Shown: positions 7,839 to 42,086 of the stretch, one piece after another
Numbering within the stretch: position 1 is the first letter of the stretch
Layout of the letters: every line of letters starts with the position of its first letter
IMG/VR virus record: IMGVR_UViG_3300019458_000009
Location: 1 to 59,493 of that record
DNA: 59,493 bases
Source of the DNA: a virus
Reading direction: 5' to 3' (one strand)
The notes under the pieces: generated by a model
What the model was told of the DNA's origin: nothing
Seen by the model: only the letters and a program-made list of their open reading frames with translations
Databases searched by the model: none
Translations under genes and position numbers: made by a program

Positions 7839-7847
7839 GAGGTAGAA

Positions 7848-8506: not shown

Positions 8507-8733
8507 GGTACGCCGTAAAGCGCAAGGACGGGTTCGTGTGGGTGAATCCCAAGACGGGGAACCCCGAGCCAGAGCGTACGGAGATCGACGACCAAGAGCC
8601 GGGCTTCGATCTGGGACAGGTCTACAAGCTGACGCCGCTCGCCGCCTCCGAGGCGCCGACGGCCGAGCAGCCCGCCGCCGCGCCGGCCAACCGGATGGTG
8701 ACGGGCAAGTCCCTCAAGCGACGGGAGGCCTAG
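8503..8733 (+). CDS. Hypothetical protein (76 aa).
   Basis: Translationally coupled ORF. The next gene starts immediately after its stop. Confidence 0.5.
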   Translation: MRYAVKRKDGFVWVNPKTGNPEPERTEIDDQEPGFDLGQVYKLTPLAASEAPTAEQPAAAPANRMVTGKSLKRREA

Positions 8734-9324: not shown

Positions 9325-9896
9325 TGGTCACCCCGCGCTCCCAGCGAGTCTTGGAGTTCATGGCGAGCACGGCCCGGCAGGAGCTGGTGCGCGGCGGGTT
9401 CCGCTTTCAGCGCACGATGCAAATTACCCGGCTGTCCGGGCCGACCACGCCCGCGTCGTTGTCGGTGCGCACCGGCGCCCTACGGCGCAGCATTCGCCAT
9501 GAGGTGGTGCAGACTGGTCGCTATGCTTATACGCTGATTGGAGTTATCGGCCAGGGTGTGCCGTACGCTCGAATTCACGAATTTGGTGGGACCATTGAGC
9601 CAAAGAAGGCCAAGCACCTGGCAATCCCGCTGCAGCGTGGCGCTAAAACGGCGTTTGGGCCGTCCGCGTATCCTGGCAAACTTACGTTCATCAAGAGCAA
9701 GGCCGGGAATAAGCTGCTAGCTGAGGTGACGGGACGCGGAACGCGCCGCCGCATCAAGCCCGTGTTTGTCTTAAAGAAGCAAGTGGTCGTGCCGGCGCGG
9801 CTGGGTTTTCGTCAAACCTTCCAGCAGGAAGCTCAAGTAACGTTGGTGAACATCCAGCAGAAGCTGCAAGTAATTAAGATGCGGGGAGGCCGTTGA
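9324..9896 (+). CDS. Neck/tail-completion protein, HK97 gp10-like or Mu G-like (190 aa).
   Basis: TAATG coupling. The central motif VPYARIHEFGGTIEPKKAKHLAIPL resembles the YA..HqFGg signature of these families. The region is visibly lower in GC. Confidence 0.45.
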   Translation: MVTPRSQRVLEFMASTARQELVRGGFRFQRTMQITRLSGPTTPASLSVRTGALRRSIRHEVVQTGRYAYTLIGVIGQGVPYARIHEFGGTIEPKKAKHLAIPLQRGAKTAFGPSAYPGKLTFIKSKAGNKLLAEVTGRGTRRRIKPVFVLKKQVVVPARLGFRQTFQQEAQVTLVNIQQKLQVIKMRGGR

Positions 9897-28629: not shown

Positions 28630-28888
28630 GTTGTTCGCCCTCCACGAAGTCCAAGCGGCTGGACGGATAGCGCCCGCGCGCGACGCGCATGCGCTGGTCG
28701 ACCTCGGGGCACCCGCGGTGCAGGCAGTCGGCGCACGTGGACGGGAATGACGGAAGGATCCGCACCACGTCCTCCACTAGGCCGCAGCACCCGCACCGCT
28801 CCCGACGCCCACACCACTGCGCGAAAAAGCCGGGCGACCGGCCGCGCCGACATCCGCACGGCCGTTTATTGTGCTTTTTCTTCGGCAA
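28610..28888 (-). CDS. Possible Cys-rich mini-protein (about 92 aa). The start is uncertain.
   Basis: The only open frame between the polymerase stop and 28629. It has no ATG or GTG, and TTG 28888 is the candidate start. Motifs CGC, CGCC and C..C are present. Confidence 0.3.
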   Translation of the reverse strand: MPKKKHNKRPCGCRRGRSPGFFAQWCGRRERCGCCGLVEDVVRILPSFPSTCADCLHRGCPEVDQRMRVARGRYPSSRLDFVEGEQRVRDAR

Positions 28889-30872
28889 GGTCCAGGTCCT
28901 CGGCCTCGCTCCACCGAGCGTGGGCAATCTGCGCGTCGACGTAGATGGGTACGCGCATACGAGGCTGCCCCGCATCGTCCAGGAAGGTCTCCAGCACCGG
29001 GCGCAGCGCCCGCGCCGCCTCGAGCGCCGCCTCGCCCGGCACCTCGAACATAAGCTCGTCGTGGATCGTCACCAGGAGGCTTCCATCGAAGCGCTTGGCT
29101 ACCTCGTGCCCTCGAATGGCCTGGTACTTCAACAAGTCCGCCGAACTGCCCTGGCAGATGGCGTTGAGTGCCTGGTACGGCTTCAGTCCGCGGTCTTCCT
29201 TGCCTTGGCCCTTGCCCCAGCCCCACCGCTTGGCCGCGCGGCGCCGGCGGCCCAGGATCGTCTTGACGTAGCCGCGCTGCATAAGCGCCCGGCTCACGCG
29301 GTCCTGGAGGCCGGCGAGCTCCGGCACCTCGCGGTGGTAGGCCTCCAGGACCCGCCGCGCGGCGGCCTCGTCCACCGCCGCGTCGTTGTCCGACATGAAC
29401 CGCACCAGCTTATCCTGGCCCATGCCATACACAATGCCGAAGTTACCAGACTTCATGAGGCTGCGCTTCAAGCTGGTGCCCAGGATTCCGTTCATAAGGT
29501 CAGTCGCCCACTGGTGCATGTCCATCGTAGCGTCGCTTGCGTACGCCTGGATCAGGCGGGGCGAGTTGGTGTAGTGCGCAAAGAACCGGTACTCGATCTG
29601 GCTGGCGTCGAACAGCAGCAGCGCATAGCCCGGCCGCGGCACGAAATACTGACGGGCGCCGGGCGCGCGCCACGTCTCGACTTGGCCCTCGTTCATCTCT
29701 AGGGTAAATTCCTCTTCGTCTGGCACCTGCTGCAGGTTGGGTGAATCGGACGACATGCGGCCCGTGCGCGCGCCGAGCTGGTTGAAGTTCGAGTGGATCG
29801 CGTGATCGATCTCGCATTCTAGGTAAGCCTCGATGAACGAGTTGCGGATGTGGTGCAGCCGCCGCGCCTTGCGGATGTTCCAGAAGACGCGCCGGTGGTC
29901 CGGGTATTCCCGGATATACCGTAGCAGCACCTCGTCGTCAAACCGTGGCAGCCCATACGGGTGTCGGCCCGATGGTTTCGTGCGCCCCAGGATCGGAAGT
30001 CCCAGCTTGTGTTGGACCGCGTCGGCGAGCTCCTCGATGGAGCCCGGGTTGACCGACACGCCGATCAACTTCTCCAGCTCGGCCTCCAGCTCGATGGCCT
30101 CCGCAAGCGTATCGCGACGATCTTTTTTAAGCCGGTCTACATCTACCAGGACGCCACGCAGCTCGCTCTCCACCAGGACGCGCAGCATCTCGCACTCCAT
30201 GGCGTACACCGCCTCAACTTCCTCAGTGGCCAGCTTTGGCGCCTGCCACGCGGCCAGGCGCAGCGCGCGCTCCACATCGGAGCACCCGTACGGCGCCATG
30301 ACGTCGACCGGCACGACGGACCAATCCTGGCGGGCCTTCTTCTGGCCTATCAAGTAGGCATCCTTAGCGGCCTCTTCGTCGGCCGGCATGTTTAGGTACT
30401 TCGCGGTGATGGGCTTCAGTGAGTGCGTCGGCTCCCTTTCGTCGATCAACTGCGAGGCAAGCATCGTGTCCAGTAGCCGGGCGCCCGCGTAGTCACCGGG
30501 CTGCAGCGCGCCGTTCACGATCAAGTGCTTGAGATCAAACTTCAAATTTTGGTTGACTATGAACTTGGCCGATCGTGTGATCTGCGTTAGCCAGTGGTAC
30601 ACCTGCGCGCTGTTTAAATTTTTATCCGCGTCGCTGGGGCTGCGGTGGCGTAGTGGCAGATACCATGCCTCGCCCGGCACCGCGACGGATATTCCTAGCA
30701 GGTCGGCGTGCCAGGGATTCAGCCCGGCGCCGTCGATCTCGCGAGACTTCTGATCTGGCATTGTCTCGATATCGACCGCCACGACCGGTTGCCCGACCAG
30801 GTTCGGCAGCGATTCCCCGGGCGTGACAAGGTTCTTTTTAAACTCGAGCTTGGCCCAGCTTGGGTCGATCAT
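28866..30872 (-). CDS. Family A DNA polymerase with a 3'-5' exonuclease domain (668 aa).
   Basis: ATG 30872 sits in an ATGA overlap. Exo I is VAVDIETMP. Motif A is LLLFDASQIEYRFFAHY, motif B is RSLMKSGNFGIVYGMG, and motif C is VTIHDELMFEV. Confidence 0.9.
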   Translation of the reverse strand: MIDPSWAKLEFKKNLVTPGESLPNLVGQPVVAVDIETMPDQKSREIDGAGLNPWHADLLGISVAVPGEAWYLPLRHRSPSDADKNLNSAQVYHWLTQITRSAKFIVNQNLKFDLKHLIVNGALQPGDYAGARLLDTMLASQLIDEREPTHSLKPITAKYLNMPADEEAAKDAYLIGQKKARQDWSVVPVDVMAPYGCSDVERALRLAAWQAPKLATEEVEAVYAMECEMLRVLVESELRGVLVDVDRLKKDRRDTLAEAIELEAELEKLIGVSVNPGSIEELADAVQHKLGLPILGRTKPSGRHPYGLPRFDDEVLLRYIREYPDHRRVFWNIRKARRLHHIRNSFIEAYLECEIDHAIHSNFNQLGARTGRMSSDSPNLQQVPDEEEFTLEMNEGQVETWRAPGARQYFVPRPGYALLLFDASQIEYRFFAHYTNSPRLIQAYASDATMDMHQWATDLMNGILGTSLKRSLMKSGNFGIVYGMGQDKLVRFMSDNDAAVDEAAARRVLEAYHREVPELAGLQDRVSRALMQRGYVKTILGRRRRAAKRWGWGKGQGKEDRGLKPYQALNAICQGSSADLLKYQAIRGHEVAKRFDGSLLVTIHDELMFEVPGEAALEAARALRPVLETFLDDAGQPRMRVPIYVDAQIAHARWSEAEDLDLAEEKAQ

Positions 30873-31861
30873 AGGGTCTCCATCAAAGCGCCGGCCACCA
30901 GGGCTCGCAGACGCACGCCCCACTCGGGCAGTCGCTGTGACTCAAAGCGGCGCAGGTACTGCGGGTGCGGAAACTTGTGATGCGTGATGTTATGCTTGTG
31001 TAGATATTTCGCCGCCGATTCACCGAGCGCGATTACGATCTTTGGCGAGAGCCAAATTATCGCGCGCGGATCGAGTTCATCGCCGTCGTTGTCGTACGCG
31101 TTCACCAGGTACAACGAGCGCTCGCCCACGCCGGCGAAGTCTAACAAATCGCTGAGAGTTTTACTGCATCCGTTAAAGCCCGCGAACGGGCGCATGCCGG
31201 TTATATCGCCGCCTACCTGCTCTCCAACTAGAAGAATCTTCGGCCACAGGTAGCCCCAGCTCTGGGGCGCAAAGCCGGTGATCGTCATAGACCGATCCAG
31301 GTGCATGCGCCATACATCGAGCGACCACGTGAGCGCTTGTGCGACGGCGTCTTCATTGCCATCGGACGTATCAATCTCTGAAAGGTACGTCACGCCCCGC
31401 CGTCCCAGCGCAAGGTCTTTCAACGCAACATCGTAATATTGATTGATGGCGTTGTAATGTCCCACGGTTTGGCACATATCATCGCGGCCTCGTTCGATCA
31501 TGCGGCGCGCGATTGAATCTACGTTGGCTCGCAGGAGCACTTGCACGCTGCCCGCGCGATTAAGCTCACGCGCTACCAGGCGACGGAGGTGCGGCGTGAA
31601 CTTGGGATTTACGCCGTTACGAAACGCGGCGCCGTACGCCAACTCCGACAGGGCGAATCGATCTGACAGCTGTCCACCTTTAGTCACCGCATCTAGGTAA
31701 CTCTGTCCGTAGTTAAAATTCTCCGGCAAGCGACCCCAGTGCTGTATCTTGATAACGTCGCGCCCGTACCACCGGGGCCACTTTGCGCGGTTGATCTTTG
31801 TCCGCGCTTGATTTAAGAAGGTTGTCTTGCCGACGAAGTCGGCGCCCTCGACGATGAACAC
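30869..31861 (-). CDS. Fusion of a thymidylate/dNMP-kinase-like P-loop domain with a UDG-superfamily (family 4/5-like) domain (330 aa).
   Basis: The N-terminal half has FIVEGADFVGKTTF and SDRFALSELAYGA, the TMK-type P-loop and DRY-like block. The C-terminal half has LLVGEQVGGDITGMRPFAGFNGCSKTLSDLL and HKFPHPQYLRR, which resemble UDG motifs A and B. GTG 31861 after AGGAAA is preferred; GTG 31900 is the alternative. Confidence 0.6.
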   Translation of the reverse strand: MFIVEGADFVGKTTFLNQARTKINRAKWPRWYGRDVIKIQHWGRLPENFNYGQSYLDAVTKGGQLSDRFALSELAYGAAFRNGVNPKFTPHLRRLVARELNRAGSVQVLLRANVDSIARRMIERGRDDMCQTVGHYNAINQYYDVALKDLALGRRGVTYLSEIDTSDGNEDAVAQALTWSLDVWRMHLDRSMTITGFAPQSWGYLWPKILLVGEQVGGDITGMRPFAGFNGCSKTLSDLLDFAGVGERSLYLVNAYDNDGDELDPRAIIWLSPKIVIALGESAAKYLHKHNITHHKFPHPQYLRRFESQRLPEWGVRLRALVAGALMETL

Positions 31862-31871
31862 GATTATTTTC

Positions 31872-32900
31872 CTAATGAAAGCAAAAGTTAAATACGCCAC
31901 CGAGTTTCTGGCGCAACAGCTCTTCTAGCGTACGCCGCGCCGCCTCGGAGGTCTCCACGCCGAGTTGTACTCGCTTCCAAAGCCACGCGGTCTCGGCAAG
32001 TTGTTCAAGCGAATTGAGTTCCGCGCGGCCAATGATGCGGTCTGTCAACCTCGCCTCAGCGGTCTTAGCGTCCAGCGACTTCGTCCACGCCGCGCGTAAC
32101 GGTAATTGCAATTCAGCGTTCGGCCTTAACGGGAATGACTCAGATGTTAAAGATACGTTGTCGCCAAGTTCGCCATAGTAGTATTCCAAGATCCGCTCGG
32201 TCGCGCTCCAATTACGCTCGTACAGGTGCAATGACCCCACTTGGTGTACGTACTCTCCAACGTACGCGCCGAGCTGCTGAGCCATGAGCTCCTGCAGCGC
32301 GGTGAAACAAAAGATGTCATAAAGCGTGCCCAGCCACAGGTCGTTCGATCTCATCGTTGTAATGAGATTTAAGTGGCCGTCGCGCAGCAAAAATTGCAGC
32401 GCCAGCGTGCAGGGATAATCCTTTGTCTTAGCGCCTACGTCCGTCGGCGCGTAGATGGGGATGACCGCCTGGCGCGTGTCGGGATCGTTACGAAGTAGGC
32501 GTTGACACTTTAACCACGGCGACGTTTGTTGACTCTGGCCCAGCTCATCACGGTCCTCAACGCACGGACCAAAGATGCGCGGACCATACGCGCCGTATAA
32601 ATGCGCGCCGTCATCGGAGAACTGCCCATAGCTTGGCGCGTAGTATTTGATGTACTCCAAGTTGTCGGACCCGCACAGGTACCACGCCAGCTCACCGGCC
32701 GCGTACGCCAGCGACCAGCGCCGAAACGGGATCAACGGGATACGGGCGACCGGATCGGTGAGCGTTAACTGCGCCGCCAAAATCTCCTTAGTCCGTTGAC
32801 CGCGAGGCGCCACGTCGGTTCCGTGCCAATACACTCGGCGCAGCGCTTGCCGCCACACGTTAGTTAAACTGTCTCCGCTAACGACGCACTCGTTATCCAC
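31872..32900 (-). CDS. Thymidylate-synthase-fold pyrimidine C5 transferase, probably deoxycytidylate-specific (dCMP hydroxymethylase-like) (342 aa).
   Basis: GGAGG RBS, then GTG 32900. The block YPCTLALQFLLRDGHLNLITTMRSNDLWLGTLYDIFCF aligns without gaps to E. coli ThyA [38 protein letters not shown]. The catalytic Cys is kept and Asn177 is replaced by Asp. NDPDTRQ and SLHLYE blocks are also present. Confidence 0.7.
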   Translation of the reverse strand: MDNECVVSGDSLTNVWRQALRRVYWHGTDVAPRGQRTKEILAAQLTLTDPVARIPLIPFRRWSLAYAAGELAWYLCGSDNLEYIKYYAPSYGQFSDDGAHLYGAYGPRIFGPCVEDRDELGQSQQTSPWLKCQRLLRNDPDTRQAVIPIYAPTDVGAKTKDYPCTLALQFLLRDGHLNLITTMRSNDLWLGTLYDIFCFTALQELMAQQLGAYVGEYVHQVGSLHLYERNWSATERILEYYYGELGDNVSLTSESFPLRPNAELQLPLRAAWTKSLDAKTAEARLTDRIIGRAELNSLEQLAETAWLWKRVQLGVETSEAARRTLEELLRQKLGGVFNFCFH

Positions 32901-34098
32901 GATAAACCTCCGCGCGGGGCTTCTTTGGCCGCCAGCCGGGCACACGGTCGAGCCGCGCGACGTAGTGGGCTGGCCCAACGAGCTCGACCAACTCCTGGTC
33001 GCCCTTATATGAGACGCCGGTCGTCAGCGTCTCGTTACAAAGTTTGCCGAACCACCGCCCGACTTCCACGCAGACGCCCTTGCCGATCTGAGCGGCGCCG
33101 TCATCGCCGATGACTACCCAGTCGTCCGGCAAGCCCATGCACCGCGCCATCTCCCGCACCGAGAGCGGGCGCTGGTGATCGGGGTGGAAGTAATGCCAGG
33201 ACCCACTGTAGATTACCTTGCACGGCCGATCCGGGTGCAGCCGGTGCGGTACGTGCCAGCCTAGGTTGATGGCCTGCAAGCGCTCAGGGAGGTCCGCCCA
33301 AGGCAGGTCGCGCACGTTCTCGCCTGGCGCCAGTTTTAACGCAGCTTCAAAGTACGCCCGCGAAGCGGGCGTCGTCTTCCACCAGTAATGGTGGTTGATA
33401 TAATTCGTCGGCGAATTTTTGACCACGCCTTCCAGATCGTTTAGGGTAGATAGATCGAAGACGGGCAGCGCCGGACAATTCCACAGCGCGCCGTTGTCCT
33501 GGCCGTATAAGACGTCGTGCACTAAGACGTGCGGGCCGCGATGTCGCAGCTCATTCGTGACCGTGGTAAGCGGCGGTTGAAGCCGTTGGTCGACCCACAT
33601 GAAAATCACGCGGGGCCGCCACTGCGAGTTGCCGAACATGTTCGCGTTGTGGTACAACTCGTACAGGGTGTACCCGGCCCCGTGGGTGTGGTGTAGCCAC
33701 TCGATCAGCGGGCGCCCGGTCGTGCCCGCCTGCTGCACCGACTCAAACGCCCATATGCTAGGCTTCAGCCAGGAGGCGAGCTCCGCGAATTGGCGGATGT
33801 CCACCGTCGGCCGGGCCCAGGCGCCGTGCGCGTCTTCAGAACAGCCGTGCCCCAGTGCTGAGAAGCCGGTGCACCGCGGGTTGCCGAATAGCACGTCGAT
33901 GCCGTGAAACTTACTGGCCACGCTGGGCCAGGCCTCGAAGTCGCCGCGGTAGAACGGGATGCCTAAGTTGTGCTCTACGGTCTTTTCCCCCAGCGTGAAG
34001 ACCTCGAGCTGGGCTTGCACTTCTAGACTTTCCGCCATGCCGCAAGTAAAGCCGCCCATGAAGCAATGCGCGCCGAGCGCGGTGAAGCGAGCAGTCAT
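32893..34098 (-). CDS. DNA (cytosine-5)-methyltransferase-like protein (401 aa).
   Basis: Motif I is HCFMGGFTCG, motif IV GNPRCTGFS, motif VI FESV, and motif VIII NSQWRPRVIF. Motif IX is RPLSVREMARCMGLPDDW and motif X is IGKGVCVEV. An ATGA overlap joins it to the upstream gene. Confidence 0.7.
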   Translation of the reverse strand: MTARFTALGAHCFMGGFTCGMAESLEVQAQLEVFTLGEKTVEHNLGIPFYRGDFEAWPSVASKFHGIDVLFGNPRCTGFSALGHGCSEDAHGAWARPTVDIRQFAELASWLKPSIWAFESVQQAGTTGRPLIEWLHHTHGAGYTLYELYHNANMFGNSQWRPRVIFMWVDQRLQPPLTTVTNELRHRGPHVLVHDVLYGQDNGALWNCPALPVFDLSTLNDLEGVVKNSPTNYINHHYWWKTTPASRAYFEAALKLAPGENVRDLPWADLPERLQAINLGWHVPHRLHPDRPCKVIYSGSWHYFHPDHQRPLSVREMARCMGLPDDWVVIGDDGAAQIGKGVCVEVGRWFGKLCNETLTTGVSYKGDQELVELVGPAHYVARLDRVPGWRPKKPRAEVYRG

Positions 34099-34577
34099 GA
34101 GACCCTCTTATCCACGATGTCGATGTGCTGCGCCAACAGCAGCGGGGCCAGGTCGGGCGGTTCATAACCTTCGCCCTTGGGATGCAACGGCGACTTGGCC
34201 TCTTGGTTCGCCGTCTTCGTCATGTTGCTGCGTTGGATCTCTGCGAAGATCGGCGCCAGGTCGATGCCGGCCGCGACGGCCGAGCCGAGTACGACGTACA
34301 GCAGGTCGCCGAGCGCGTCGGCGATCTTCACCACGTCCAGCTGGTGCCACGCCTCCATGAGCTCGCCGGACTCAGAAATCACCATGTGGGCGCGCTCGAC
34401 GCCGGTCTTCCACCACTCGTGGAGCCAGGCCTCGTAACCTTGCGGAAGATGGCAGGCCTTCGTACTGCATCCGGACTTCAACAGGTCGACCACGAAGCCG
34501 TGCTTCTCATGAAAGGTTTTAACCGCCGCCTGCGCTTCACGCAGCGATGGATCGTGCGAGTTAGATCCTGGGCTCAT
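34095..34577 (-). CDS. MazG-like all-alpha NTP pyrophosphohydrolase (160 aa).
   Basis: ATG 34577 sits in an ATGA overlap. The blocks ISESGELMEAW ... ADALGDLLYVVLGSAVAAGIDL ... EIQRSNMTK are typical of MazG-type pyrophosphatases. Confidence 0.65.
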   Translation of the reverse strand: MSPGSNSHDPSLREAQAAVKTFHEKHGFVVDLLKSGCSTKACHLPQGYEAWLHEWWKTGVERAHMVISESGELMEAWHQLDVVKIADALGDLLYVVLGSAVAAGIDLAPIFAEIQRSNMTKTANQEAKSPLHPKGEGYEPPDLAPLLLAQHIDIVDKRVS

Positions 34578-35815
34578 AGCAATTCTCTCCAATCAAACAC
34601 ATGACGTCGACCAAGTTCGGGCGCTTGCCAGTTAAAGTCATCTTTCGTCACCACCGCCTCAATGGAGTCCGGCACGCGGCTCGGTTTGAGTAAATGATGG
34701 CCGGCGAGCTGCTCGCGTTGCAGCCACACACGCTCGATATATTCAGCGCCATACCGACAGCGCTGGATTAATTGTCGCGCCGGCTCGGGCGCCTCCACGT
34801 AATACTTCTCGTCGACGAGCTCCAGGTCGTTGCGCAGCCGCGCGTCGACGAACATCAGCCGGCCTGCCTCCGCTACCTCGCACCAGCGAAATGCGATGAG
34901 CTTGGCGGGGTAGAATTTTCGGTGCGTGATGACGATGGACGCCCAGCAGCGTTGGTACGAGCTCAAGATGTCGCGGGGTGGCACGGGTCCCAGGAACGCC
35001 TCCGCGCCGACGGAGTCCAACAGGTGCGCGTGCCGCTCCAGGTCCCACCGACCCCACACGGCGTTGCGGACCGTCGCGCCGTTGGCGTGCTCGCGCTTGT
35101 AGAATTCCGCCAGGAACTGGTCGCGCTCGTAGTCGTTGCCGACGTAGCCGAAGTCGTACTCCACGCGTGAGGTGTCGATCGCGCGGTCCGGCGGCGTCTG
35201 GTACGGCGGCAGCGAGACGTACTGGTGCCCGGCCCACAGGCGCGCCAGGTACGGCGTGAACAGATAAAAGTAGCTCACGAAATCGGCCCGCGTCGCGTCA
35301 CGGATGGCGCCGGTGAGACGGAACATGTCGTCGAGGCAGGGCAGGAGCCCGTTCGCGCCCAGGTCTTGGTCAAACAAGATCACCGGCACGCCGCTGACTA
35401 CCGCGCGCAAGATGACCGCCGTGACCTCCAGCTTGGCCGCGAGCGAGACGCACGGGTTGATCTTGAGGCACTGAACGTCGGCCTCCAGCGGCTTGAACTC
35501 GCTGGACTCCAGCCAGGCCTTCAGCCGACGCTGCGCCCGGTTCTGCGGATCGCAGCCCCGCGTCTCCTTGATGAGGTCCAGGATCACACGGTGCAGCCAG
35601 AGGCCTTCGCCGTTCCAGGCGCTCGCGTACCGCCCCGTGTCCTGATAGTCGAACGTGTCGACGTTTGACCCGTCGGGTGGCCGCGCGATGCCATTCAATA
35701 CGATCTCGTGGCCGCGCCGGCGCAGCTCATCGAGCACCGACAACGCAAGTTTTGGCGCGTTGCGAGTAAACACCGAGTCGTCGGTGTTGCCGTACATCCA
35801 CCAGGCAATCTTCAC
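34574..35815 (-). CDS. T4 beta-glucosyltransferase-like DNA glycosyltransferase (413 aa).
   Basis: GTG 35815 sits in a GTGA overlap. From memory of T4 BGT, four blocks correspond (this protein / T4):
- MKIAWWMYGN / MKIAIINMGN
- VILFDQDL / YYLFTDIRL
- GYVGNDYERDQ / IYGGSFRSGQR
- FLGPVPPRDI / FTGKIPMNMV, and IAFRWCEVAEAGRLMFVD / ITLRVWETMASDAVMLID
No search was run to verify this. Confidence 0.55.
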   Translation of the reverse strand: MKIAWWMYGNTDDSVFTRNAPKLALSVLDELRRRGHEIVLNGIARPPDGSNVDTFDYQDTGRYASAWNGEGLWLHRVILDLIKETRGCDPQNRAQRRLKAWLESSEFKPLEADVQCLKINPCVSLAAKLEVTAVILRAVVSGVPVILFDQDLGANGLLPCLDDMFRLTGAIRDATRADFVSYFYLFTPYLARLWAGHQYVSLPPYQTPPDRAIDTSRVEYDFGYVGNDYERDQFLAEFYKREHANGATVRNAVWGRWDLERHAHLLDSVGAEAFLGPVPPRDILSSYQRCWASIVITHRKFYPAKLIAFRWCEVAEAGRLMFVDARLRNDLELVDEKYYVEAPEPARQLIQRCRYGAEYIERVWLQREQLAGHHLLKPSRVPDSIEAVVTKDDFNWQAPELGRRHVFDWRELL

Positions 35816-36120
35816 GGCTGGCCTTTCTCTAAGTTGGCGATGAACCGATCCAGGTACCAGCGCGCCTTCTTAAGATCCTCTAGCGGATGGCCCCTGTGTG
35901 GGCTGCGCGCCACGTACTTCACCACGTTACCCAGGTGGAACGGCAGCTTCTGATCCTCGATGAAGTCGATAATCTCGATCTTGCCGGCTGCGTAGTGGGA
36001 CGGGTAGTCCACAGGGTTGTTATCCTTCACAGGTTCCGCCGCCGGCTCCCTAAATTGAGCCTTGTATTTCTCGATAGGCTGTTCTCTGAACCGCTGACAC
36101 TCGTGGCAATCGCACGACAT
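35812..36120 (-). CDS. DUF3310-like phage protein (102 aa).
   Basis: GGGGTGAGG RBS, then ATG 36120. YPSHYAAGKIEIIDFIEDQKLPFHLGNVVKYVARSPHRG..LEDLKKARWYL matches the DUF3310 pattern. Confidence 0.6.
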   Translation of the reverse strand: MSCDCHECQRFREQPIEKYKAQFREPAAEPVKDNNPVDYPSHYAAGKIEIIDFIEDQKLPFHLGNVVKYVARSPHRGHPLEDLKKARWYLDRFIANLEKGQP

Positions 36121-36124
36121 GGCC

Positions 36125-36790
36125 TCACCCCTTAAATCGGATCTCCACCCACCCCGCCTCCACCCACTTGGCGAAGACCTTCTGGGCATACGCCTCCGCC
36201 TTCATCACGCTCAGCTGCGCGGCGTGGATCAACTGACGCTTAAACTCGTCGTACTCCACGCCGTCGGGCCCGGCGAGTATAATCATCTGGAAGGCCATCC
36301 AAGCGACGCCCCGCTCGAAGGGATTCTCGATCCGCGCCGACACCCGCGCCTTCTTGAGCGACGTGGAGTCCTTGTCGGGCTCGTCGTCAACCTCGTCGAC
36401 CGCCAGGAGACGCGGGCCCATCATGGCGAAGCGTGAGTCGTTCTTCCGCACCGACTCGGGCACCGCTCGTCCGCTGCGCCGGTAGTGTTCACGCTGGTAC
36501 TGCCGCCCCATCGCCTCGATCATCCAGTCGCGGCGCGCGCGAAACGGCGGCTCTTGCCCCAGGTCTTGGCGAAATCGCGCCTCTAACACCAGGCGTGGCA
36601 TACGCTGTAGCTGACGGTAGTAGTGGTGCACCGGCTCCAAGGTAAAGCCGTCCCACGGTGCAGGTGGCGGGAGCTGAATCTCCTCTTTATCGCGCGCCCG
36701 TTGTGTTTGGCGTTTCTCCTCGAGTGCCTTTTGTTGCGCTCGAACCTCACGCATCAGCTCTCGCTCAATGGCGTCTAGATCAGAATTCAT
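36125..36790 (-). CDS. Hypothetical protein (221 aa).
   Basis: GGAGGG RBS, then ATG 36790. The N-terminus is charged and coiled, and the C-terminus is globular. Confidence 0.55.
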   Translation of the reverse strand: MNSDLDAIERELMREVRAQQKALEEKRQTQRARDKEEIQLPPPAPWDGFTLEPVHHYYRQLQRMPRLVLEARFRQDLGQEPPFRARRDWMIEAMGRQYQREHYRRSGRAVPESVRKNDSRFAMMGPRLLAVDEVDDEPDKDSTSLKKARVSARIENPFERGVAWMAFQMIILAGPDGVEYDEFKRQLIHAAQLSVMKAEAYAQKVFAKWVEAGWVEIRFKG

Positions 36791-39662
36791 CTGGCCCTCC
36801 CGTTCTCGCTTGGTTGCCGGCGAACTCTAGACTTTGAAACCGCTTCAACAGCTCGATGAACGCGCCCGTCTTGTAGTAGGAGTTCTGCTGCCGGCGGAGC
36901 GCATTGCTGCGCACGAGCAGGGACAGCAGATCCCGCGCCTGGTCCTTGCCCACGCCACCCCAGTCGCCGATGTCCGATGGACGGATCTCCCCAGAGCGCA
37001 TTAATCCCTTGATCGTCTCCATCGGGTACGGGAGCGCCATCAAGGCGGCCTTGATGGAGGCGACGTCGGTCACGGCGGCGTCCGATCGCTTAACGTCCGA
37101 ATAGTCCGCGTACCCCATGAATCGAGACGAGTAGATTGTGTTTAGAAATTCCGCGGCCCAGCGCACGTGGCCCTCGCGGACCACCAGCCGCTCCCCGTAC
37201 TCATCGCACGAGAACGTGCGGGCCGCAATGGCGGCCGCCAGGCGGGCGAGCTTCAACCGGTGGTCGGCGGGCTCCACGAGCGGGATCGCCGAGGAGTAGC
37301 GCTGGCCCTGCTCCACCGCCAGGTCGAGGCAGGCTTGCGTGGCGGCGGGCTCCAGGACCACGTCTTCCGGCCGCCGCGACCAGACCCAGAGGATTAGGCG
37401 CCGGCACAGCTCAGATGTAAATCTATGCGGCACGGGCTCGCGCTGCACCTGTTGGGTGATGACCGCCGCGTCTACCTCGTTGGAGGCCACGACCAACGCG
37501 GCGTCAAACCGGCGGACGTCCTCCAGGGAACCCAGCAGCTCCTTGATCGCCTCCGCGCCAAAGCTGTACGTCTCGATCCTGCGGTCGGATCGCGGGTTCG
37601 AGATCCACAGCAGCCGGGTGCGAGCGAACGTGCTACGCCGCTCGATCTTCGTCAGCTCGGCGCGCCCGCTGGACCGCATGTCCGTGAGCGACTGCAGCAC
37701 CTCCGGCGGGCAACCCTTGACCTCCTCCAGGATCACCAAGCGGCGGTCGTTGAGCGGGATGGCTCCCCACGTTACGAACCAGCGGCCTTGCGTCTCCTGC
37801 ACGCCGCCCTTCAACCCAGCGGTTGACGCGCCCTTCATGTCGACGCGCTCGCCGACGCCGTAGTGTTTCAACAAGCGTGACGCCGTCTCGGTCTTGCCTT
37901 GGCCCGAGTCACCGATTACCAGCGCGTCCACCCAGCCCTTGATCGGCTCGCCGTTGAACGTAACGAACAGCGCCGAGTGCCACACCAGGTCCATGAGCGC
38001 GTGTAGCTGGCGCCGCTGGTAAATGCGGGTCACGTTCGCCTCGAGGTCGGAGTAAATCTCGTCCAGTTTACCCTGCACACCCGCTGAAGACCAGTCATCG
38101 TTGGTCGGCTGGAACAGCAGCAGCTCATTGAGTTCCTCGGTCGAGGGCTTAAAACTGGACAGGTTGTCCACGTTGGGTTTGGCCTCGTACGCCAACAAGG
38201 TCGCCACCTGCGTGGCGGGGTCCACGACCGATCGCGCCGTGATCTCGTAGGTCGCGTTCGTCTCGATGCCGTGCCCGACGTGAAAGGCCCGCACAACCGC
38301 ATTCTCCGACGACGCCGGCGTCAGGTTGGTCGTGGAGAATTGCGGTACGAGCCGCACCTCCTCGATGTTGTGCTGGTCCGCGATCAGCAGGTCCGACACG
38401 TCACAGCCGGTCGGGATGCCGATCTTCTCGCGAATCGCGCGATCTTGAGCCGAAGTCGTCACATTGATGAACTCCAGGAGCTCGGCCTCATCGGCCTCAA
38501 ACTCCCACGCCGCGTCGCCCGCTTGGTTCAGGAACACCGGACACACGGCGCACATCTCCATGTTCTTCGGGCAGTTGACCTTTACCGTGCGCGGCGCGAT
38601 GTACGGCGAGGTATTCTTCGCGCTGACGATGACGGGGACCTTTACGCGCTTTTGATAGTACTGCGCCTTCGACGCGCTGCTCAGGTCCACGTCATAGACG
38701 TTAGCGTCGTCGGGCAGCTCAAACGGCTTATCTTTTTGAAACTGCGGCGTCCCTACGATCAGGTTGCGAAAGTCCTGCGGGCCGTAGCCGCCTTGGACGA
38801 AATAGTCCAGCACGTCGCCGTGCGGGTGCCGCTGCAAGTCGAGCGGCAACTGGACGACGCGCACCTCCGCGGCCAGGTCAACTAAGCGGTTCGCCAACCG
38901 CTTAGCGCCGTCCGCCCCGGCCTGGTCTACGTCATAGGCAATCACGACGCGCTTGCCGCGAAACAACGGCGACCACTCGTCACGCCAGTTGCGCGAGCCG
39001 CCGGTCGCGGTGACGGCGTTGAAGCCGCGTTGGCGCAGGCCAATCATCTTGAGCTCACCCTCCGCGACGACAATCTCCTCGCTGCCCTGCAAAGCTTCGT
39101 GCGGCACGAGCCGAATCTGCCCGTGGCGGGCGAGGCTGGTGTACTTCTTTGCCGGTGGGTGAATCTTTAATAGATCGTACGATCGGATGTTGACGAACAA
39201 CCCGGCTTCGTCTTTGATCGGAATGGTCAGGCGGCGAGCCTTCGCGTCCCACCCGAGACGAAACTTGTCCACCGACTCGCCAGAGAGCCCCTTGCTCTTT
39301 TCTAAGAGCTCCAGGAGCTCCGCCGATAGACGCAGCGCGCCGTAATATTCTTCGACGATGCGTGGATTGACCGCATAATCCGGCGTCACGCCGATCGTAC
39401 GCGCGAGCAGGGTCACCACGGCGTGCCGCGGCTGCCCGGTGACCTGGGCCCACAGGTCAATGACGGACCCCTCCTTGCCGCAGCCGAAGCACTTGAAAAG
39501 CTTATTCCGGACGTTGACCGAGCACGACGGCGTGCGGTCGTCGTGGAATGGGCACTGGATCTTCGCCTCGCCGCGCGCGTCGGGCTCCGGGAAGTCCACC
39601 AGGAGCTCCCGCATCGCAGCCAGCCCGTCGAGACGCTTTAAGACGTCCTTAGAATCGTTCAA
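36780..39662 (-). CDS. Primase-helicase: a DnaG-type zinc finger and Toprim domain fused to an MCM-like AAA+ helicase (960 aa).
   Basis: The CHC2 finger is CPFHDDRTPSCSVN..FKCFGCG and the Toprim block is VVAEGELKMIGL...VIAYDVDQAG. A Zn/OB-like block follows (VKVNCPKNMEMCAVCP). Walker A is VIGDSGQGKTE and Walker B is LVILEEV. The MCM-like LQSLTDMRSSGRAELTKIERRSTFARTRLLWISNP is also present. A TTG start at 39662 is inferred. Confidence 0.75.
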   Translation of the reverse strand: MNDSKDVLKRLDGLAAMRELLVDFPEPDARGEAKIQCPFHDDRTPSCSVNVRNKLFKCFGCGKEGSVIDLWAQVTGQPRHAVVTLLARTIGVTPDYAVNPRIVEEYYGALRLSAELLELLEKSKGLSGESVDKFRLGWDAKARRLTIPIKDEAGLFVNIRSYDLLKIHPPAKKYTSLARHGQIRLVPHEALQGSEEIVVAEGELKMIGLRQRGFNAVTATGGSRNWRDEWSPLFRGKRVVIAYDVDQAGADGAKRLANRLVDLAAEVRVVQLPLDLQRHPHGDVLDYFVQGGYGPQDFRNLIVGTPQFQKDKPFELPDDANVYDVDLSSASKAQYYQKRVKVPVIVSAKNTSPYIAPRTVKVNCPKNMEMCAVCPVFLNQAGDAAWEFEADEAELLEFINVTTSAQDRAIREKIGIPTGCDVSDLLIADQHNIEEVRLVPQFSTTNLTPASSENAVVRAFHVGHGIETNATYEITARSVVDPATQVATLLAYEAKPNVDNLSSFKPSTEELNELLLFQPTNDDWSSAGVQGKLDEIYSDLEANVTRIYQRRQLHALMDLVWHSALFVTFNGEPIKGWVDALVIGDSGQGKTETASRLLKHYGVGERVDMKGASTAGLKGGVQETQGRWFVTWGAIPLNDRRLVILEEVKGCPPEVLQSLTDMRSSGRAELTKIERRSTFARTRLLWISNPRSDRRIETYSFGAEAIKELLGSLEDVRRFDAALVVASNEVDAAVITQQVQREPVPHRFTSELCRRLILWVWSRRPEDVVLEPAATQACLDLAVEQGQRYSSAIPLVEPADHRLKLARLAAAIAARTFSCDEYGERLVVREGHVRWAAEFLNTIYSSRFMGYADYSDVKRSDAAVTDVASIKAALMALPYPMETIKGLMRSGEIRPSDIGDWGGVGKDQARDLLSLLVRSNALRRQQNSYYKTGAFIELLKRFQSLEFAGNQARTGGPDEF

Positions 39663-39771
39663 ATCTTTACCCTGCGAGGTCGTGACCGAACGTCTACGAA
39701 GCTTGGCCTTATCGGTAGACAGATCTAGGTCGGTCGCCTATCATATACCAAGCTGAACGACCTCGCGGGGT

Positions 39772-39807
39772 AAAGGGCGAGCCGTCGATTAACTCGGCGG
39801 CTCGCCC
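39772..39807 (-). terminator. Terminator-like hairpin after the SSB-like gene.
   Basis: On the minus strand: GGGCGAGCCG, a 13-nt loop, CGGCTCGCCC, then TTTACCCC. The stem is 10 bp and perfect. It lies in the 170-bp gap upstream of the primase-helicase gene. Confidence 0.5.
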
Positions 39808-39832
39808 ATCTGGAGATGGGGTTATGACTTCG

Positions 39833-40696
39833 TTAGAAGCTCTCGCCGGCCGTCGGCGGGGCCGTCCCAACGTCGTCCGCTTCGGCGACGGGCTCGTCCG
39901 ATTCGTACCGCAAGGTCGTCGCCTCGAAGGCCTCCTTGGCGTGAGCGTACGCCTGCTTGACGACGACGTACTCGGCCTCGGTCGCCCACCCGTTGGCCTT
40001 GAAGTCGTAGTTGAAATACGACTGGCCCTTTTTGTTCTTCTCCAGCACCGAGGTCAGCTGGTACTTCCCGGCGTAGAGCGGGATCTTCGGGCCGCGCCGC
40101 AGCGCCAGCGCGAGCAGCTGTTGGCCCTTCTTGAACTTCGTGCGGGACATCGTGATCGCCACCGGCGCCAGCTGCCCATCCAACAACACGAAGAACACGT
40201 GGTATTTCGTCACGCGCGGCTCGTCGGAGTTGCCCTCGCGCTTCTCGCGCAGGTCCTGCAGCTGGCGTGCCGCCAGCTTTGCCAGCTCGCCGCGAGGGTC
40301 CTTCGATCGGGCCAGGATGCCCTCGCCCGTCTCGCGGGGTGCCCACTGGATCCACTCGTTGAAGTGGTAGAACGGGACGAAGTTCAGCGACCCGCCCGCG
40401 TGGATCAGCGCCGTCTCCGCGTCGGAGTTCAGCACCACGTCACCGGGCTTCAGCTTGCCATCGACAACCTGCGGCGTCAGCGGCTGCGCCAGCAGCAACA
40501 GTGGCAGCTGCAGGCCCGCGTCACCCGCGTTCTCCAGCCCGTCGGCCGCCGAGACGTCGACGTACGCGGGCAGGTCGGCCGGCCGCGCGATCATCGCGCC
40601 TGCCTTGGCCAACTCCTCCGAGGCGGCCTTCGGCACCGCGCCCGCGGGACCCGGGATCGCCGCGTTGACCGCGGCCTTCGCCTTGATCTTCTCCAT
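39833..40696 (-). CDS. Putative ssDNA-binding/recombination-mediator-like protein with an acidic C-terminal tail (287 aa).
   Basis: AGGAGGAG RBS. The C-terminus YESDEPVAEADDVGTAPPTAGESF is acidic and ends in Phe, as in the tails of bacterial and T7-type SSBs. I did not recognise the body. Confidence 0.4.
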   Translation of the reverse strand: MEKIKAKAAVNAAIPGPAGAVPKAASEELAKAGAMIARPADLPAYVDVSAADGLENAGDAGLQLPLLLLAQPLTPQVVDGKLKPGDVVLNSDAETALIHAGGSLNFVPFYHFNEWIQWAPRETGEGILARSKDPRGELAKLAARQLQDLREKREGNSDEPRVTKYHVFFVLLDGQLAPVAITMSRTKFKKGQQLLALALRRGPKIPLYAGKYQLTSVLEKNKKGQSYFNYDFKANGWATEAEYVVVKQAYAHAKEAFEATTLRYESDEPVAEADDVGTAPPTAGESF

Positions 40697-40708
40697 GAGC
40701 TTCTCCTC

Positions 40709-41236
40709 CTATGACTCAGACAACGGTGTAACCTTAACCTTCATTTTGGGGGACACCTTGACGCCGGGCGGCAGCGGCTCGCCTCGCGCCGTGAGCTCCT
40801 CACACAGCGTCTTGAGCGGGGACCACTTCAGGTCCTCGACCACCACGCCGGCCACGCGCTCCTTCAGCCAGGCCACGAGCGCCTGGTACTCCGGCGTCCC
40901 GCGCGCGGGCGGCGACGGCAGCAGGTCCGCGTCCAGCGTAAACTTTTGCTTTAGCTCCGGCACCTCGATCTCGTAGGCCTCCTGGCCCACCGCCAGGGCG
41001 ATCAACCGCTGCTGGCTGTAGCGCTGCACGATGGAGAAGCGTTGCTGCAACTCCTCCAGGAGGGCGGTGACCTGGCGCAGCCAGGCCTCGTGGTACCCCG
41101 CCTCGAGCGGCGTCACGTCGCCCACGAGCGTCTTCTGGATCCGTTGGTCCAACTCGATCAGCGCGTCGGTCGCGATCGTGAACGCCTGGCGCTGCGCCTC
41201 GAGCGCGGCGGACAGCTTACCCTGCAGTGGGATCAT
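40709..41236 (-). CDS. Hypothetical protein (175 aa).
   Basis: GAGGA RBS, then ATG 41236. GTG 41251 is the alternative start. Confidence 0.5.
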   Translation of the reverse strand: MIPLQGKLSAALEAQRQAFTIATDALIELDQRIQKTLVGDVTPLEAGYHEAWLRQVTALLEELQQRFSIVQRYSQQRLIALAVGQEAYEIEVPELKQKFTLDADLLPSPPARGTPEYQALVAWLKERVAGVVVEDLKWSPLKTLCEELTARGEPLPPGVKVSPKMKVKVTPLSES

Positions 41237-42086
41237 CGTCGTCCTCGTCACTTAAAGATAGGACGCGGCCGGACCCGTCGGCGTTACGAAAAAATTGTGG
41301 GCCGTCTAACTTTACCGGCTCGAGCACCGCGAACCCGGCCGGATCCGCGGTTAACGCCATCTGGTAGGCGTAGTCCACCGCGAGGACGGCGGCCTCCACT
41401 TCTTCAACGGTCGCCGCGCGCTGCAGCTCCGCCCGCCGGGCTACGTCGAGCTTGAGCGACTGCAGGAAACTCGCCGCCAGGTCGGCCAGCTCCGCGAGCA
41501 CGCGGTCGACCTTGGGGTTCAGCCGGCCCAGCTCCAGCGCCAGGTACTTGCGGTAGGTGTTCGGCGCCACGCCCAACTTGCTCGCCCACTCCTTGATCGA
41601 CAGGCCCAGTTCCAGACGGTCTAGCTCCAGGCGCTGGCCGAACGGCCCCACCGCGGGAACCGCCGATGGGTGCCGCCCCAGCCGTCTCGCGGCCAGCTTG
41701 AGCTCCCCGGCGCGGGCCGCGTCCCACCGCCGGCGCGCGGGCGACCGCATCGTCTCGCGCAGCGCGTGGGGCCCGCTGCGCTTTAGCGCATCGCGCGCCA
41801 GGTCCACCAGCATCGCCCGCGCGAAGCCGGGTCGGTACACCGCGGCGCGGTATGAGCGGGCCGCCCGCGCGCCCTCGAAGCCCAGCACCTCGGCCCACGC
41901 CGCGTGGGACAGCGGCGACCGCATCTCGATCCGCAGACGTGCGCGGGCCAGCTCCACCACCCACCCGTCGGCGTCCAGCCCGCGGTAGAAGTACCGCAGC
42001 CGCGCGGGCGATTCGCCGGCGGACGCACCGACAAAGCCAGTCACCCAGTCCACAATTTTAGGATCGACGCTCACAGAACAGCTCAA
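41217..42086 (-). CDS. Helix-turn-helix DNA-binding protein (289 aa).
   Basis: An XRE-like HTH segment is present: LELGLSIKEWASKLGVAPNTYRKYL. The tail is acidic (SDEDDDDP). The start is uncertain (TTG 42086 or GTG 42074). Confidence 0.5.
   Translation of the reverse strand: MSCSVSVDPKIVDWVTGFVGASAGESPARLRYFYRGLDADGWVVELARARLRIEMRSPLSHAAWAEVLGFEGARAARSYRAAVYRPGFARAMLVDLARDALKRSGPHALRETMRSPARRRWDAARAGELKLAARRLGRHPSAVPAVGPFGQRLELDRLELGLSIKEWASKLGVAPNTYRKYLALELGRLNPKVDRVLAELADLAASFLQSLKLDVARRAELQRAATVEEVEAAVLAVDYAYQMALTADPAGFAVLEPVKLDGPQFFRNADGSGRVLSLSDEDDDDPTAG

Follow-up and report, generated by a model that had tools for sequence, protein, structure and literature searches.

The DNA analysed here, called the window, is a stretch of 59,493 nucleotides from a phage (~59 kb, 65% GC) that carries PolA and a primase-helicase and is unrelated to T4. 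All features described below lie on the minus strand. The open reading frame at 34574..35815 has a GTG start codon, a coding-type composition (GC3 0.83, GC2 0.42) and a product of 413 aa, apparently a distant homologue of T4 DNA beta-glucosyltransferase (BGT) and a putative GT-B glycosyltransferase of 5-hydroxymethylcytosine (5hmC) in DNA. We call the protein GT. The gene overlaps both of its neighbours: its GTG shares a GTGA with the TGA of the upstream DUF3310 gene and is preceded by a Shine-Dalgarno-like site, AGAAAGG, while its TGA shares an ATGA with the ATG start of the MazG-like gene that follows. The locus is a replication module and does not lie among structural or lysis genes.

Genes of the operon and their conservation

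The DUF3310 protein directly upstream (35812..36189; PF11753, E 5e-20) also matches PHROGs families labelled 'nucleotide kinase' (E 3e-26). A 221-aa upstream reading frame has no family match. The upstream end of the module is a primase-helicase (36780..39662) with Zn_ribbon_DnaG and Toprim matches in Pfam and a match to phrog_18685; an MCM-like P-loop is matched more weakly, below the cut-off (E 0.0032). Downstream of GT, the operon holds a MazG-like NTP pyrophosphatase, a thymidylate synthase (TS) homologue of the dCMP-hydroxymethylase type and a dNMP-kinase fusion. The pyrophosphatase is a MazG/PRA-PH-type NTP pyrophosphohydrolase (34095..34577; PF01503, E 3.5e-13; phrog_671, E 8e-20). It is followed by a divergent C5-cytosine-methyltransferase-like (C5-MT-like) protein (32893..34098; PF00145, E 9e-15), in which motif IV is RC, not PC, and the catalytic-loop segment HGCSEDAHGAWARPTVDIRQ is invariant; its motifs GNPRCTGFS, FESVQ and QxRxR are kept in three homologues. 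The fusion protein (30869..31900) joins a thymidylate-kinase-like P-loop domain (EGADFVGKTT; phrog_761 'thymidylate kinase', residues 14-191, E 5.8e-13) to a C-terminal domain like those of the UDG superfamily (PF03167, residues 220-323, E 2.8e-4). A family A DNA polymerase (28866..30923; PF00476, E 1.9e-61) forms the downstream end of the module.

The TS homologue (31872..32978, probable start GTG near 32885; PF00303, E 9e-27) has as its best PDB match the CMP 5-hydroxymethylase MilA (160 bits, E 7e-46). A regular thymidylate synthase was rejected on its score of 77 bits against the 327-bit NCBIfam ThyA cut-off and on the N177D replacement. In an alignment to MilA and bacterial ThyA, the positions equivalent to R126, S167 and D169 of E. 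coli ThyA are kept, and L143 and N177 are both replaced by Asp. Asp at N177 indicates cytosine, an acidic residue at L143 indicates hydroxymethyl, and Asp169 speaks against a 5-hydroxycytosine (5hoC) synthase (PMC13326640); Ser167 and Arg126 are residues of the deoxyribonucleotide type (PMC5175136). The protein thus shows the deoxy-C hydroxymethylase signature at every position tested. Like T4 gp42 and Streptomyces MilA, it retains the catalytic Cys, Asp at ThyA N177 and L143, and D169. However, its residues at the positions of MilA Ala176 and Lys133 are Ser and Arg, and it differs from both proteins by a C-terminal extension of ~100 aa. No TET/JBP-type 5mYOX dioxygenase was found among the larger minus-strand reading frames scanned.

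The genes for GT, MazG, C5-MT-like protein, TS homologue, kinase/UDG fusion and PolA co-occur in relatives whose GT is 36-44% identical, in identical order in two of them (L005 and L006), and the MazG-like gene adjoins that of GT in L005-L009. In more distant lineages, GT, the C5-MT-like protein and the TS homologue are still together, and the association of GT with TS-like, MazG and kinase genes is kept in lineages where GT identity falls to 21-27%. Close relatives have either a radical-SAM/SPASM gene adjoining that of GT or a paralogue of GT in tandem with it. A 415-aa hypothetical protein, encoded after the TS homologue in the related Manatee Spring phage MW202657, was considered and is not a homologue of GT. 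The neighbours, as identified by sequence, support a DNA-modifying role for GT.

Relationship of GT to T4 beta-glucosyltransferase

The initial annotation proposed, from collinear motif blocks, that GT is a BGT homologue. All of the blocks are found in the reading frame: MKIAWWMYGN (residues 1-10), LFDQ (147-150), YVG (224-226), FLGPVP (274-279), RWCE (310-313) and LMFVD (320-324). Comparisons of single sequences give no significant support. Against a T4 BGT reference that is 100% identical to the T4 records, BLASTP gives E 0.069 and phmmer no significant match, and GT as a single query finds nothing significant in Pfam, PHROGs, PDB or NCBIfam (a TPR_IMB1 match in Pfam, E 0.28, is at chance level). 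Among 50,697 GenBank phages there was no match, either to GT by tblastn or to the 12 kb around its gene by megablast. An IMG/VR search returned distant relatives only, at 21-27% identity, and the close family has only about 14 members among billions of proteins.

Profiles give a different picture. A narrow profile of the close family (A1), searched against the whole PDB with HMMER, has T4 BGT as its sole match (E 0.0018). With a broader profile of 55 sequences (A6) the match improves to E 4e-15, and no other glycosyltransferase appears at E<=1, including any chain of the GT4 enzymes MshA, BshA, WaaG and PimA. By hhalign against a BGT-family alignment, residues 199-378 of GT pair with 173-351 of BGT (probability 96.6%, E 4.9e-10), and the broad profile yields a full-length collinear alignment that includes MKIA..GN (E 4.7e-20). 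The family profile also recovers two genuine PF09198 proteins (P0136 and P0147, E ~1e-5) from 1.84 billion representatives. Conversely, an HMM of BGT run against the six-frame translation of the window matches this reading frame alone (E 5.8e-6), with no second glycosyltransferase of this or the BGT family found there. Identity between GT and T4 BGT is about 12-15% in the aligned regions. T4 AGT (GT72) is absent from the PDB profile searches and from the top 50 Foldseek PDB matches.

The AF2 model of GT (pLDDT 84, pTM 0.83) has a GT-B fold, with two Rossmann-like domains and a cleft between them, and its top Foldseek match in the PDB is T4 BGT (1c3j; E 4.3e-8, target-normalised TM 0.59). The retaining GT4-type enzymes MshA, BshA and WaaG score almost equally, so the fold does not settle the stereochemistry of GT. 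Matches in BFVD include phage glycosyltransferases annotated as DNA beta-glucosyltransferase and those of SP-15. Taken at the level of sequence profiles and a predicted structure, common ancestry of GT and T4 BGT is supported, and the proposal holds up on the two kinds of similarity, profile and structural, by which it was to be judged. The suggested comparison with PF09198 came out divided: similarity to BGT is present at the profile level, but the PF09198 model itself matches neither GT nor nine close homologues, even at E<=10, and only 2 of 135 distant relatives. The description of GT as highly diverged was apt, as it belongs to a separate, very divergent subfamily. PF13524 (Glyco_trans_1_2), a generic model of the CgeB/YkvP-like GT-B C-terminal domain without a defined acceptor, is matched by four of ten close homologues (best E 5.6e-7) and 72 of the 135 distant relatives, but not by GT itself; PF00534 is matched by two of the 135.

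The relationship is clearest in the predicted nucleotide-sugar-binding C-terminal domain (residues ~199-391, 34643..35221), defined by hhalign and by HMMER against 1bgt. Here the C-terminal blocks pair with their T4 counterparts in both methods. The segment Y224-V-G226-N227-D-Y-E-R231 (35123..35146) pairs with Y186-G-G188-S189...R195 of T4 BGT; YVGNDYxR is the family consensus, invariant in A1 and near-invariant in A6. Likewise, R310-W-C-E313...L320-M-F-V-D324 (34844..34888) pairs with R269-V-W-E272...D283, with R310, E313 and D324 invariant in the close family. We take R191, R195, R269 and E272 to be the UDP-binding residues of the BGT C-domain. Three of these have invariant or near-invariant partners in GT (R231 for R195, R310 for R269, E313 for E272), whereas R191, which falls opposite a gap or Y229, has no Arg equivalent.

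The N-terminal, acceptor-side domain (residues ~1-200, 35216..35815) is Rossmann-like, with beta1 at 2-6, alpha1 at 21-33, beta2 at 37-40, beta3 at 114-119 and beta4 at 145-149 in the AF2 model. Only the broad profile aligns it with BGT 1-107; compared alone with narrow profiles in hhalign, the N-terminal domains give E 0.5, which is not significant. Taken by themselves, the N-terminal motif matches are therefore insufficient; only the 55-sequence profile links them. The MKIA..GN block is aligned by that profile, as had been proposed, but the family does not conserve its G9. The central block is also present, although its pairing had been off by two residues: in hhalign, F148 pairs with L97, and D151, not Q150, pairs with D100. 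In T4 BGT, D100 is the catalytic residue (bioRxiv 10.1101/2023.12.21.572611; PDB 1nzd title). The full-length alignment and the topology agree on the D151 pairing, and the segment D149-Q150-D151 (35363..35371), at the C-terminal end of beta4, is the candidate site of the catalytic base. Both D149 and D151 are at least 90% conserved across the 55 relatives, and the close family shows no variation at D149.

GT had been described as about 60 aa longer than T4 BGT, and its 413 aa against 351 aa give an excess of 62. By sequence alignment, the extra residues are explained mostly by an insertion in the acceptor domain (residues ~44-107, 35495..35686), which appears as a gap in the full-length hhalign alignment and contains two confident helices, 70-84 and 90-102 (pLDDT 81-91). 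With an N-terminal domain so diverged that only the broad profile detects it, and with this insertion of ~64 residues, acceptor recognition could differ from that of BGT.

Proposed function and competing readings

Glycosylating hydroxymethylcytosine is a classic means by which phages counter restriction enzymes and CRISPR nucleases. We propose, with a probability of about 0.7, that GT is a GT-B enzyme related to T4 BGT that adds sugar post-replicatively to 5hmC in the DNA of its own phage. In such a pathway the MilA/gp42-like TS homologue, judged by its signature residues, would convert dCMP to 5hm-dCMP, the thymidylate-kinase-like domain of the fusion protein would phosphorylate the product, the MazG-like pyrophosphatase would clear competing dCTP, and the phage PolA would build 5hm-dCTP into DNA. 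The C-terminal domain of GT would then bind an NDP-sugar, probably a UDP-hexose, through YVGN...R231, R310 and E313. With D149 and D151, the acidic residues where beta4 ends, as a likely general base, the sugar would pass to the 5-CH2OH of a flipped-out hmC with inversion, as is expected from homology to BGT. The outcome would be phage DNA that resists restriction and CRISPR nucleases. Since the neighbours include genes for hydroxymethylcytosine synthesis, GT would add a member to a known anti-restriction strategy rather than represent a new kind of system. The window reading frames scanned included no gene recognised as one for sugar-nucleotide biosynthesis, so the sugar donor is a guess. A further point against this reading is the conserved C5-MT-like gene, which would have no obvious role if hmC replaces every cytosine. 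The initial annotation had left both sugar and acceptor specificity open, rightly in our judgement.

A DNA glycosyltransferase with other chemistry is an unlikely reading. The sugar might be another one (for example heptose, Kdo, GlcNAc, galactose or arabinose), the mechanism might be a retaining, alpha one, the acceptor might be a sugar already present on hmC, or the base might be processed further by the C5-MT-like enzyme. Kdo or heptose, not glucose, is what characterised metaviromic GT-B DNA glycosyltransferases that share this Foldseek pattern transfer, and the near-equal scores of retaining GT4 enzymes point the same way, as do the highly diverged acceptor domain with its insertion, the radical-SAM/SPASM gene or tandem paralogue in close relatives, and the C5-MT-like gene that always accompanies GT. 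However, the Asp that pairs with the inverting base D100 is conserved, the sequence profile matches BGT only, and the lack of detected sugar-nucleotide synthesis genes in the scanned reading frames speaks for an abundant host donor such as UDP-glucose. An elaborate version, in which GT, the C5-MT-like protein, the TS homologue and the kinase/UDG fusion would form a conserved cytosine-hypermodification cassette, strikes us as quite improbable; the C5-MT-like protein would there do more than methylate, taking 5hmC or glycosyl-5hmC in DNA as its substrate and, for example, activating the 5-substituent by way of Cys-C6, and together with a non-glucose sugar this would give an undescribed hypermodification.

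The acceptor could also lie elsewhere. Phage TS homologues can yield 5hm-dUMP or 5ho-dCMP, and GT-B enzymes glycosylate the resulting bases in other phages (those of SP-15, for example), but there is only a slender chance that GT acts on 5-hydroxymethyluracil or 5hoC instead of 5hmC: in the TS homologue, Asp at ThyA N177 indicates cytosine specificity and Asp at L143 is the hydroxymethyl signature. For 5hoC in particular, all tested 5hodCMP synthases have Asn at position 169 (PMC13326640), and this acceptor was rejected because the TS homologue keeps Asp169. A non-DNA acceptor (a host envelope glycan, a virion protein or a small molecule), with the position in a replication operon incidental, is very unlikely. 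Most relatives of GT bear only the generic PF13524 signature, its acceptor domain is not recognisably BGT-like in narrow profiles, and ~65% of metaviromic contigs with glycosyltransferases have no neighbouring base-modification gene (bioRxiv 10.1101/2023.12.21.572611). Against this, GT is translationally coupled between nucleotide-metabolism genes in the replication module, away from structural or lysis genes; its linkage to TS-like, MazG and kinase genes persists across lineages, and its homology to BGT is full-length and includes the catalytic Asp.

Comparison with known systems

T4 BGT is a much-used tool for 5hmC mapping, and GT is a candidate 5hmC-labelling enzyme, possibly with another sugar or sequence-context specificity. 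If the assignment is correct, the recognisable BGT lineage now reaches an unannotated and very divergent subfamily carried by a lineage of high-GC phages, for which GT would be a new annotation anchor. GT would reveal no new principle but extend a known anti-restriction strategy, with the T4-style logic of hydroxymethylase, dNTPase, kinase and transferase reassembled from different protein families. It also points to a recurrent, unexplained partnership with a C5-methyltransferase-like enzyme.

T4 BGT itself (PDB 1bgt, 1c3j, 1j39 and 1nzd) belongs to Pfam PF09198 and CAZy GT63. GT resembles it in its GT-B fold, in having it as the sole PDB family found by sequence profiles, in conserved equivalents of D100, Y186/G188, R195, R269, E272 and D283, and in gene linkage to a predicted dCMP hydroxymethylase. 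Unlike T4 BGT, it has no PF09198 match, no Arg at R191 and an excess of 62 aa, and it belongs to an unrelated phage. Its placement outside the T4-like phages was correct but is not new: Enterococcus phage VPE25 and Lactobacillus phage ATCCB, non-T4 siphoviruses outside the Straboviridae, already have annotated BGT homologues, whose genes, like that of GT, lie beside a TS homologue and a dNTP pyrophosphatase or kinase. Unlike GT, these proteins are of the bona fide PF09198 type, 31-42% identical to T4 BGT.

BGT-like GT-B DNA glycosyltransferases beside ThyS homologues have been reported in metaviromes (bioRxiv 10.1101/2023.12.21.572611). In that study, by Weigele and co-workers, GT53, GT66 and GT94 act after a C5-methyltransferase and a TET-like 5mYOX, that is, on post-replicative 5hmC, whereas in the phage of GT, with no 5mYOX among the larger reading frames scanned, 5hmC is predicted to come from the TS homologue. 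In other respects the published description makes them alike: GT53, GT66 and GT94 are GT-B proteins whose Foldseek matches are T4 BGT (E 1e-5 to 1e-7) and then MshA and BshA, as for GT. A putative catalytic Asp in them overlaps D100 (D152 in GT94), their genes neighbour those of C5-methyltransferases, and their HMM relatives often lie beside ThyS homologues (bioRxiv 10.1101/2023.12.21.572611).

Sequence homology to T4 beta-glucosyltransferase

The gene studied (GT) occupies 34574..35815 on the minus strand, exactly where the initial annotation had claimed an ORF, and encodes 413 aa from a GTG start (N-terminus MKIAWWMYGN in the ORF listing). Its codon composition (GC3 0.83, GC2 0.42) fits a genuine gene in a window of 65% GC. 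AGAAAGG precedes the GTG, which shares bases with the TGA stop of the DUF3310 gene upstream (GTGA); at the other end, GT's own TGA and the start ATG of the next gene, which is MazG-like, overlap in ATGA. GT is therefore one link of a translationally coupled chain. The five motif blocks that had suggested a likeness to T4 beta-glucosyltransferase (BGT) are all present (residues 1-10, 147-150, 224-226, 274-279, and 310-324), and the excess over T4 BGT, put earlier at about 60 aa, is 62 aa; the reference sequence used agrees with T4 GenBank records at 100% identity.

As a single sequence, GT finds nothing significant in Pfam, PHROGs, NCBIfam, or PDB (phmmer). Its best Pfam match, TPR_IMB1 (E 0.28), is at chance level, tblastn and megablast give no match in 50,697 GenBank phages, and pairwise BLASTP against T4 BGT yields 20 bits (E 0.069). 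Close homologues number only nine among 5.8 billion protein clusters (36-45% identity), all of them metagenomic. With the alignment built from these nine (A1) as profile, T4 BGT is the sole significant match in the entire PDB (E 0.0018, residues 268-382 vs 231-345). Compared by hhalign with a BGT-family alignment (A4) of the T4, VPE25, and ATCCB BGTs and two metagenomic proteins of PF09198, the Pfam T4 BGT family, A1 matches in the C-terminal domain with a probability of 96.6% (E 4.9e-10). Searched exhaustively with HMMER against 1.84 billion representatives, A1 retrieved 190 proteins at E<=1e-3. Two of these, P0136 and P0147 (E ~1e-5), score 111-119 bits against T4 BGT and are genuine BGT-family proteins; two members of the scanned relative set, presumably the same two, match PF09198. 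A broad profile of 55 full-length relatives, all drawn from the best 60 matches (E <= 2e-10) and none BGT-type, aligns with the BGT alignment over its full length (1-391 vs 1-351; probability 99.3%, E 4.7e-20). The equivalent 55-relative alignment (A6) finds T4 BGT in the PDB at E 4e-15 and no other glycosyltransferase at E<=1. In the reverse direction, a BGT HMM run against all six-frame ORFs of the window matched GT alone (E 5.8e-6; runner-up 1.7). The N-terminal blocks of GT, taken alone in narrow profiles, are not significant (E 0.5). Profile comparison, both of the C-terminal domain and at full length, thus supports the homology to T4 BGT that had been proposed, to which we assign a probability of about 0.95.

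Predicted fold and active-site residues

The AlphaFold2 model of GT (A1 as input) is confident (pLDDT 84, pTM 0.83) and has two Rossmann-like domains. Foldseek ranks T4 BGT first in the PDB (1c3j, E 4.3e-8, TM 0.59 on target), so the structural similarity that the initial annotation had named as a test is found; the GT4-type GT-B enzymes MshA, BshA, WaaG, and PimA are close behind. The BFVD matches are viral proteins of the GT-B type, among them one with the annotation DNA beta-glucosyltransferase, Bacillus phage SP-15 glycosyltransferases, and a Rhizobium phage glycosyltransferase. The same Foldseek pattern is reported for metaviromic GT-B DNA glycosyltransferases that are experimentally active (bioRxiv 10.1101/2023.12.21.572611).

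In the full-length alignment, MKIAWWMYGN of GT pairs with MKIAIINMGN of BGT, and alpha1/beta2 are also paired with their counterparts. GT residues ~44-107, which include two confident helices (70-84 and 90-102), form an insertion relative to BGT that explains the extra length. D113 aligns with D60, which is invariant in BGT. The central block noticed earlier is present, VPVILFDQD of GT facing KIYYLFTD of BGT, but the LF/LF pairing then suggested is off by two residues, and D151 falls on D100, the catalytic base of BGT (bioRxiv 10.1101/2023.12.21.572611; PDB 1nzd entry title). D149 does not vary within the close family, and among the 55 relatives both it and D151 are at least 90% conserved. In the C-terminal domain the GT/BGT pairs are Y224/Y186, G226/G188, N227/S189, R231/R195, G255/G214, R310/R269, E313/E272, and D324/D283, all invariant or near-invariant; no Arg of GT corresponds to BGT R191. 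From the BGT crystal structures, these BGT residues are assigned to the UDP phosphates and ribose.

The gene module and a predicted pathway

The module is transcribed from high to low coordinates on the minus strand, beginning with a primase-helicase (36780..39662) and a 221-aa ORF without family match (36125..36790), which is kept upstream of GT on four contigs of relatives (L005, L007, L008, and L010; 34-38% identity). The DUF3310 protein (35812..36189) matches PHROG families labelled 'nucleotide kinase' and has a Cys-rich N-terminal stretch, CDCHECQRF; in L005 its gene is located elsewhere, downstream of the polymerase. GT is followed by genes for a MazG/PRA-PH-type NTP pyrophosphohydrolase (34095..34577), a divergent C5-cytosine-methyltransferase-like (C5MT-like) protein (32893..34098), a thymidylate synthase (TS) homologue (31872..~32885), a 343-aa kinase/UDG-like fusion (30869..31900), and the family A DNA polymerase, PolA (28866..30923). 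The fusion joins a thymidylate-kinase-like P-loop (EGADFVGKTT; phrog_761) to a C-terminal UDG-superfamily/UdgX-like domain and is a candidate hm-dCMP kinase; it adjoins PolA also in L005, L006, and the IMG/VR locus L013.

The six genes from GT to PolA recur on contigs of close homologues (L005-L009), in identical order in L005 and L006. GT, C5MT-like, and TS-like genes also occur together around far more distant relatives, namely P0017 and the IMG/VR loci L013 and L014 (21-27% GT identity). The C5MT-like gene (L005:10387-11709, L006:3387-4607, and L009:7617-8948 among the contigs) is always linked to the other two, even at only 21-27% GT identity. In three relatives a radical-SAM/SPASM gene sits between the GT and MazG-like genes (L005:8712-9686, L007:8971-9957, and L008:3404-4390), which suggests a further tailoring step absent from the window phage. 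L010 has two tandem GT-family paralogues (983-2146 and 2143-3390; 387 and 415 aa, the latter 44% identical to GT), a hint of two successive or alternative glycosylations.

The TS homologue scores far under the NCBIfam ThyA cut-offs, and its best solved relative is the CMP 5-hydroxymethylase MilA (160 bits vs <=68 for true TS). In alignments, Asp replaces L143 and N177 of E. coli ThyA, while Asp169, Ser167, and Arg126 are kept. N177D confers cytosine specificity, an acidic residue at L143 accompanies hydroxymethylation, and D169N marks 5-hydroxy-dCMP synthases (PMC13326640); Ser and Arg, where MilA has Ala176 and Lys133, give deoxyribonucleotide specificity (PMC5175136). This residue signature predicts 5hm-dCMP synthase activity for the TS homologue. 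The C5MT-like protein retains the catalytic Cys (GNPRCTGFS) and QxRxR, with RC replacing PC in motif IV and ESV replacing ENV, and carries an invariant 20-residue segment, HGCSEDAHGAWARPTVDIRQ, after motif IV. A C5-methylase has no obvious substrate where DNA cytosines already bear a C5 substituent, as the predicted 5hmC content would have it. No TET-like oxidase was found among the larger minus-strand ORFs scanned. A novel but unlikely reading built on this is that the C5MT-like enzyme acts on 5hmC or glycosyl-5hmC as part of a cytosine hypermodification.

The proposed pathway begins with the hydroxymethylation of dCMP, as the residue signature of the TS homologue indicates. By homology, the kinase domain of the fusion would then phosphorylate 5hm-dCMP, the MazG-like enzyme would deplete dCTP, and PolA would incorporate 5hm-dCTP. 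Lastly, GT would glycosylate the hydroxymethyl group of a flipped-out hmC from an NDP-sugar donor, D151/D149 serving as base and R231/R310/E313 binding the nucleotide. GT probably glycosylates 5hmC in DNA. The window ORFs scanned yielded no gene for sugar-nucleotide biosynthesis, a mild point in favor of a host UDP-hexose as donor; related GT-B DNA glycosyltransferases use Kdo or heptose (bioRxiv 10.1101/2023.12.21.572611).

The phage lineage and known glycosylation systems

The window, a complete contig of 59,493 bp, has its structural genes on the plus strand (~1-21 kb and 54-59 kb) and its replication genes on the minus strand. The 12 kb tested (30000-42000) has no nucleotide match in GenBank phages, and no GenBank phage exceeds ~30% identity to PolA, hence the lineage is novel. 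SNF2-helicase and Pam3_Gp34-like genes are also present. The Manatee Spring phage (MW202657.1, 11145-14261) has in common a replication module of SNF2, Pam3_Gp34-like, primase-helicase (36% identity), NTP-PPase, TS-like (39%), and PolA genes; where the window has GT, it encodes a dCMP deaminase and a 415-aa hypothetical protein unrelated to GT, which may be a hypermodification enzyme of another kind.

True BGT homologues of two siphoviruses, Enterococcus phage VPE25 and Lactobacillus phage ATCCB, likewise adjoin TS homologues. The BGT homologue is followed in ATCCB (6992-9222) by UDP-galactopyranose mutase, and in VPE25 (7001-9614) by an RNase HI gene and a 'nucleotide sugar synthetase-like' gene, neighbors that suggest sugars other than glucose. 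BGT homologues outside T4-like phages are thus already annotated, and a 2023 preprint describes BGT-like GT-B DNA glycosyltransferases from thousands of metaviromic contigs, ~28% adjoining ThyS homologues (bioRxiv 10.1101/2023.12.21.572611); GT therefore extends a known type of enzyme. Most members of the BGT-related GT-B clade carry only the generic GT-B C-domain signature PF13524. Although homologous to T4 BGT and probably like it in action, GT fails the PF09198 model; within that clade, a divergent sister subfamily is the description that suits it best.
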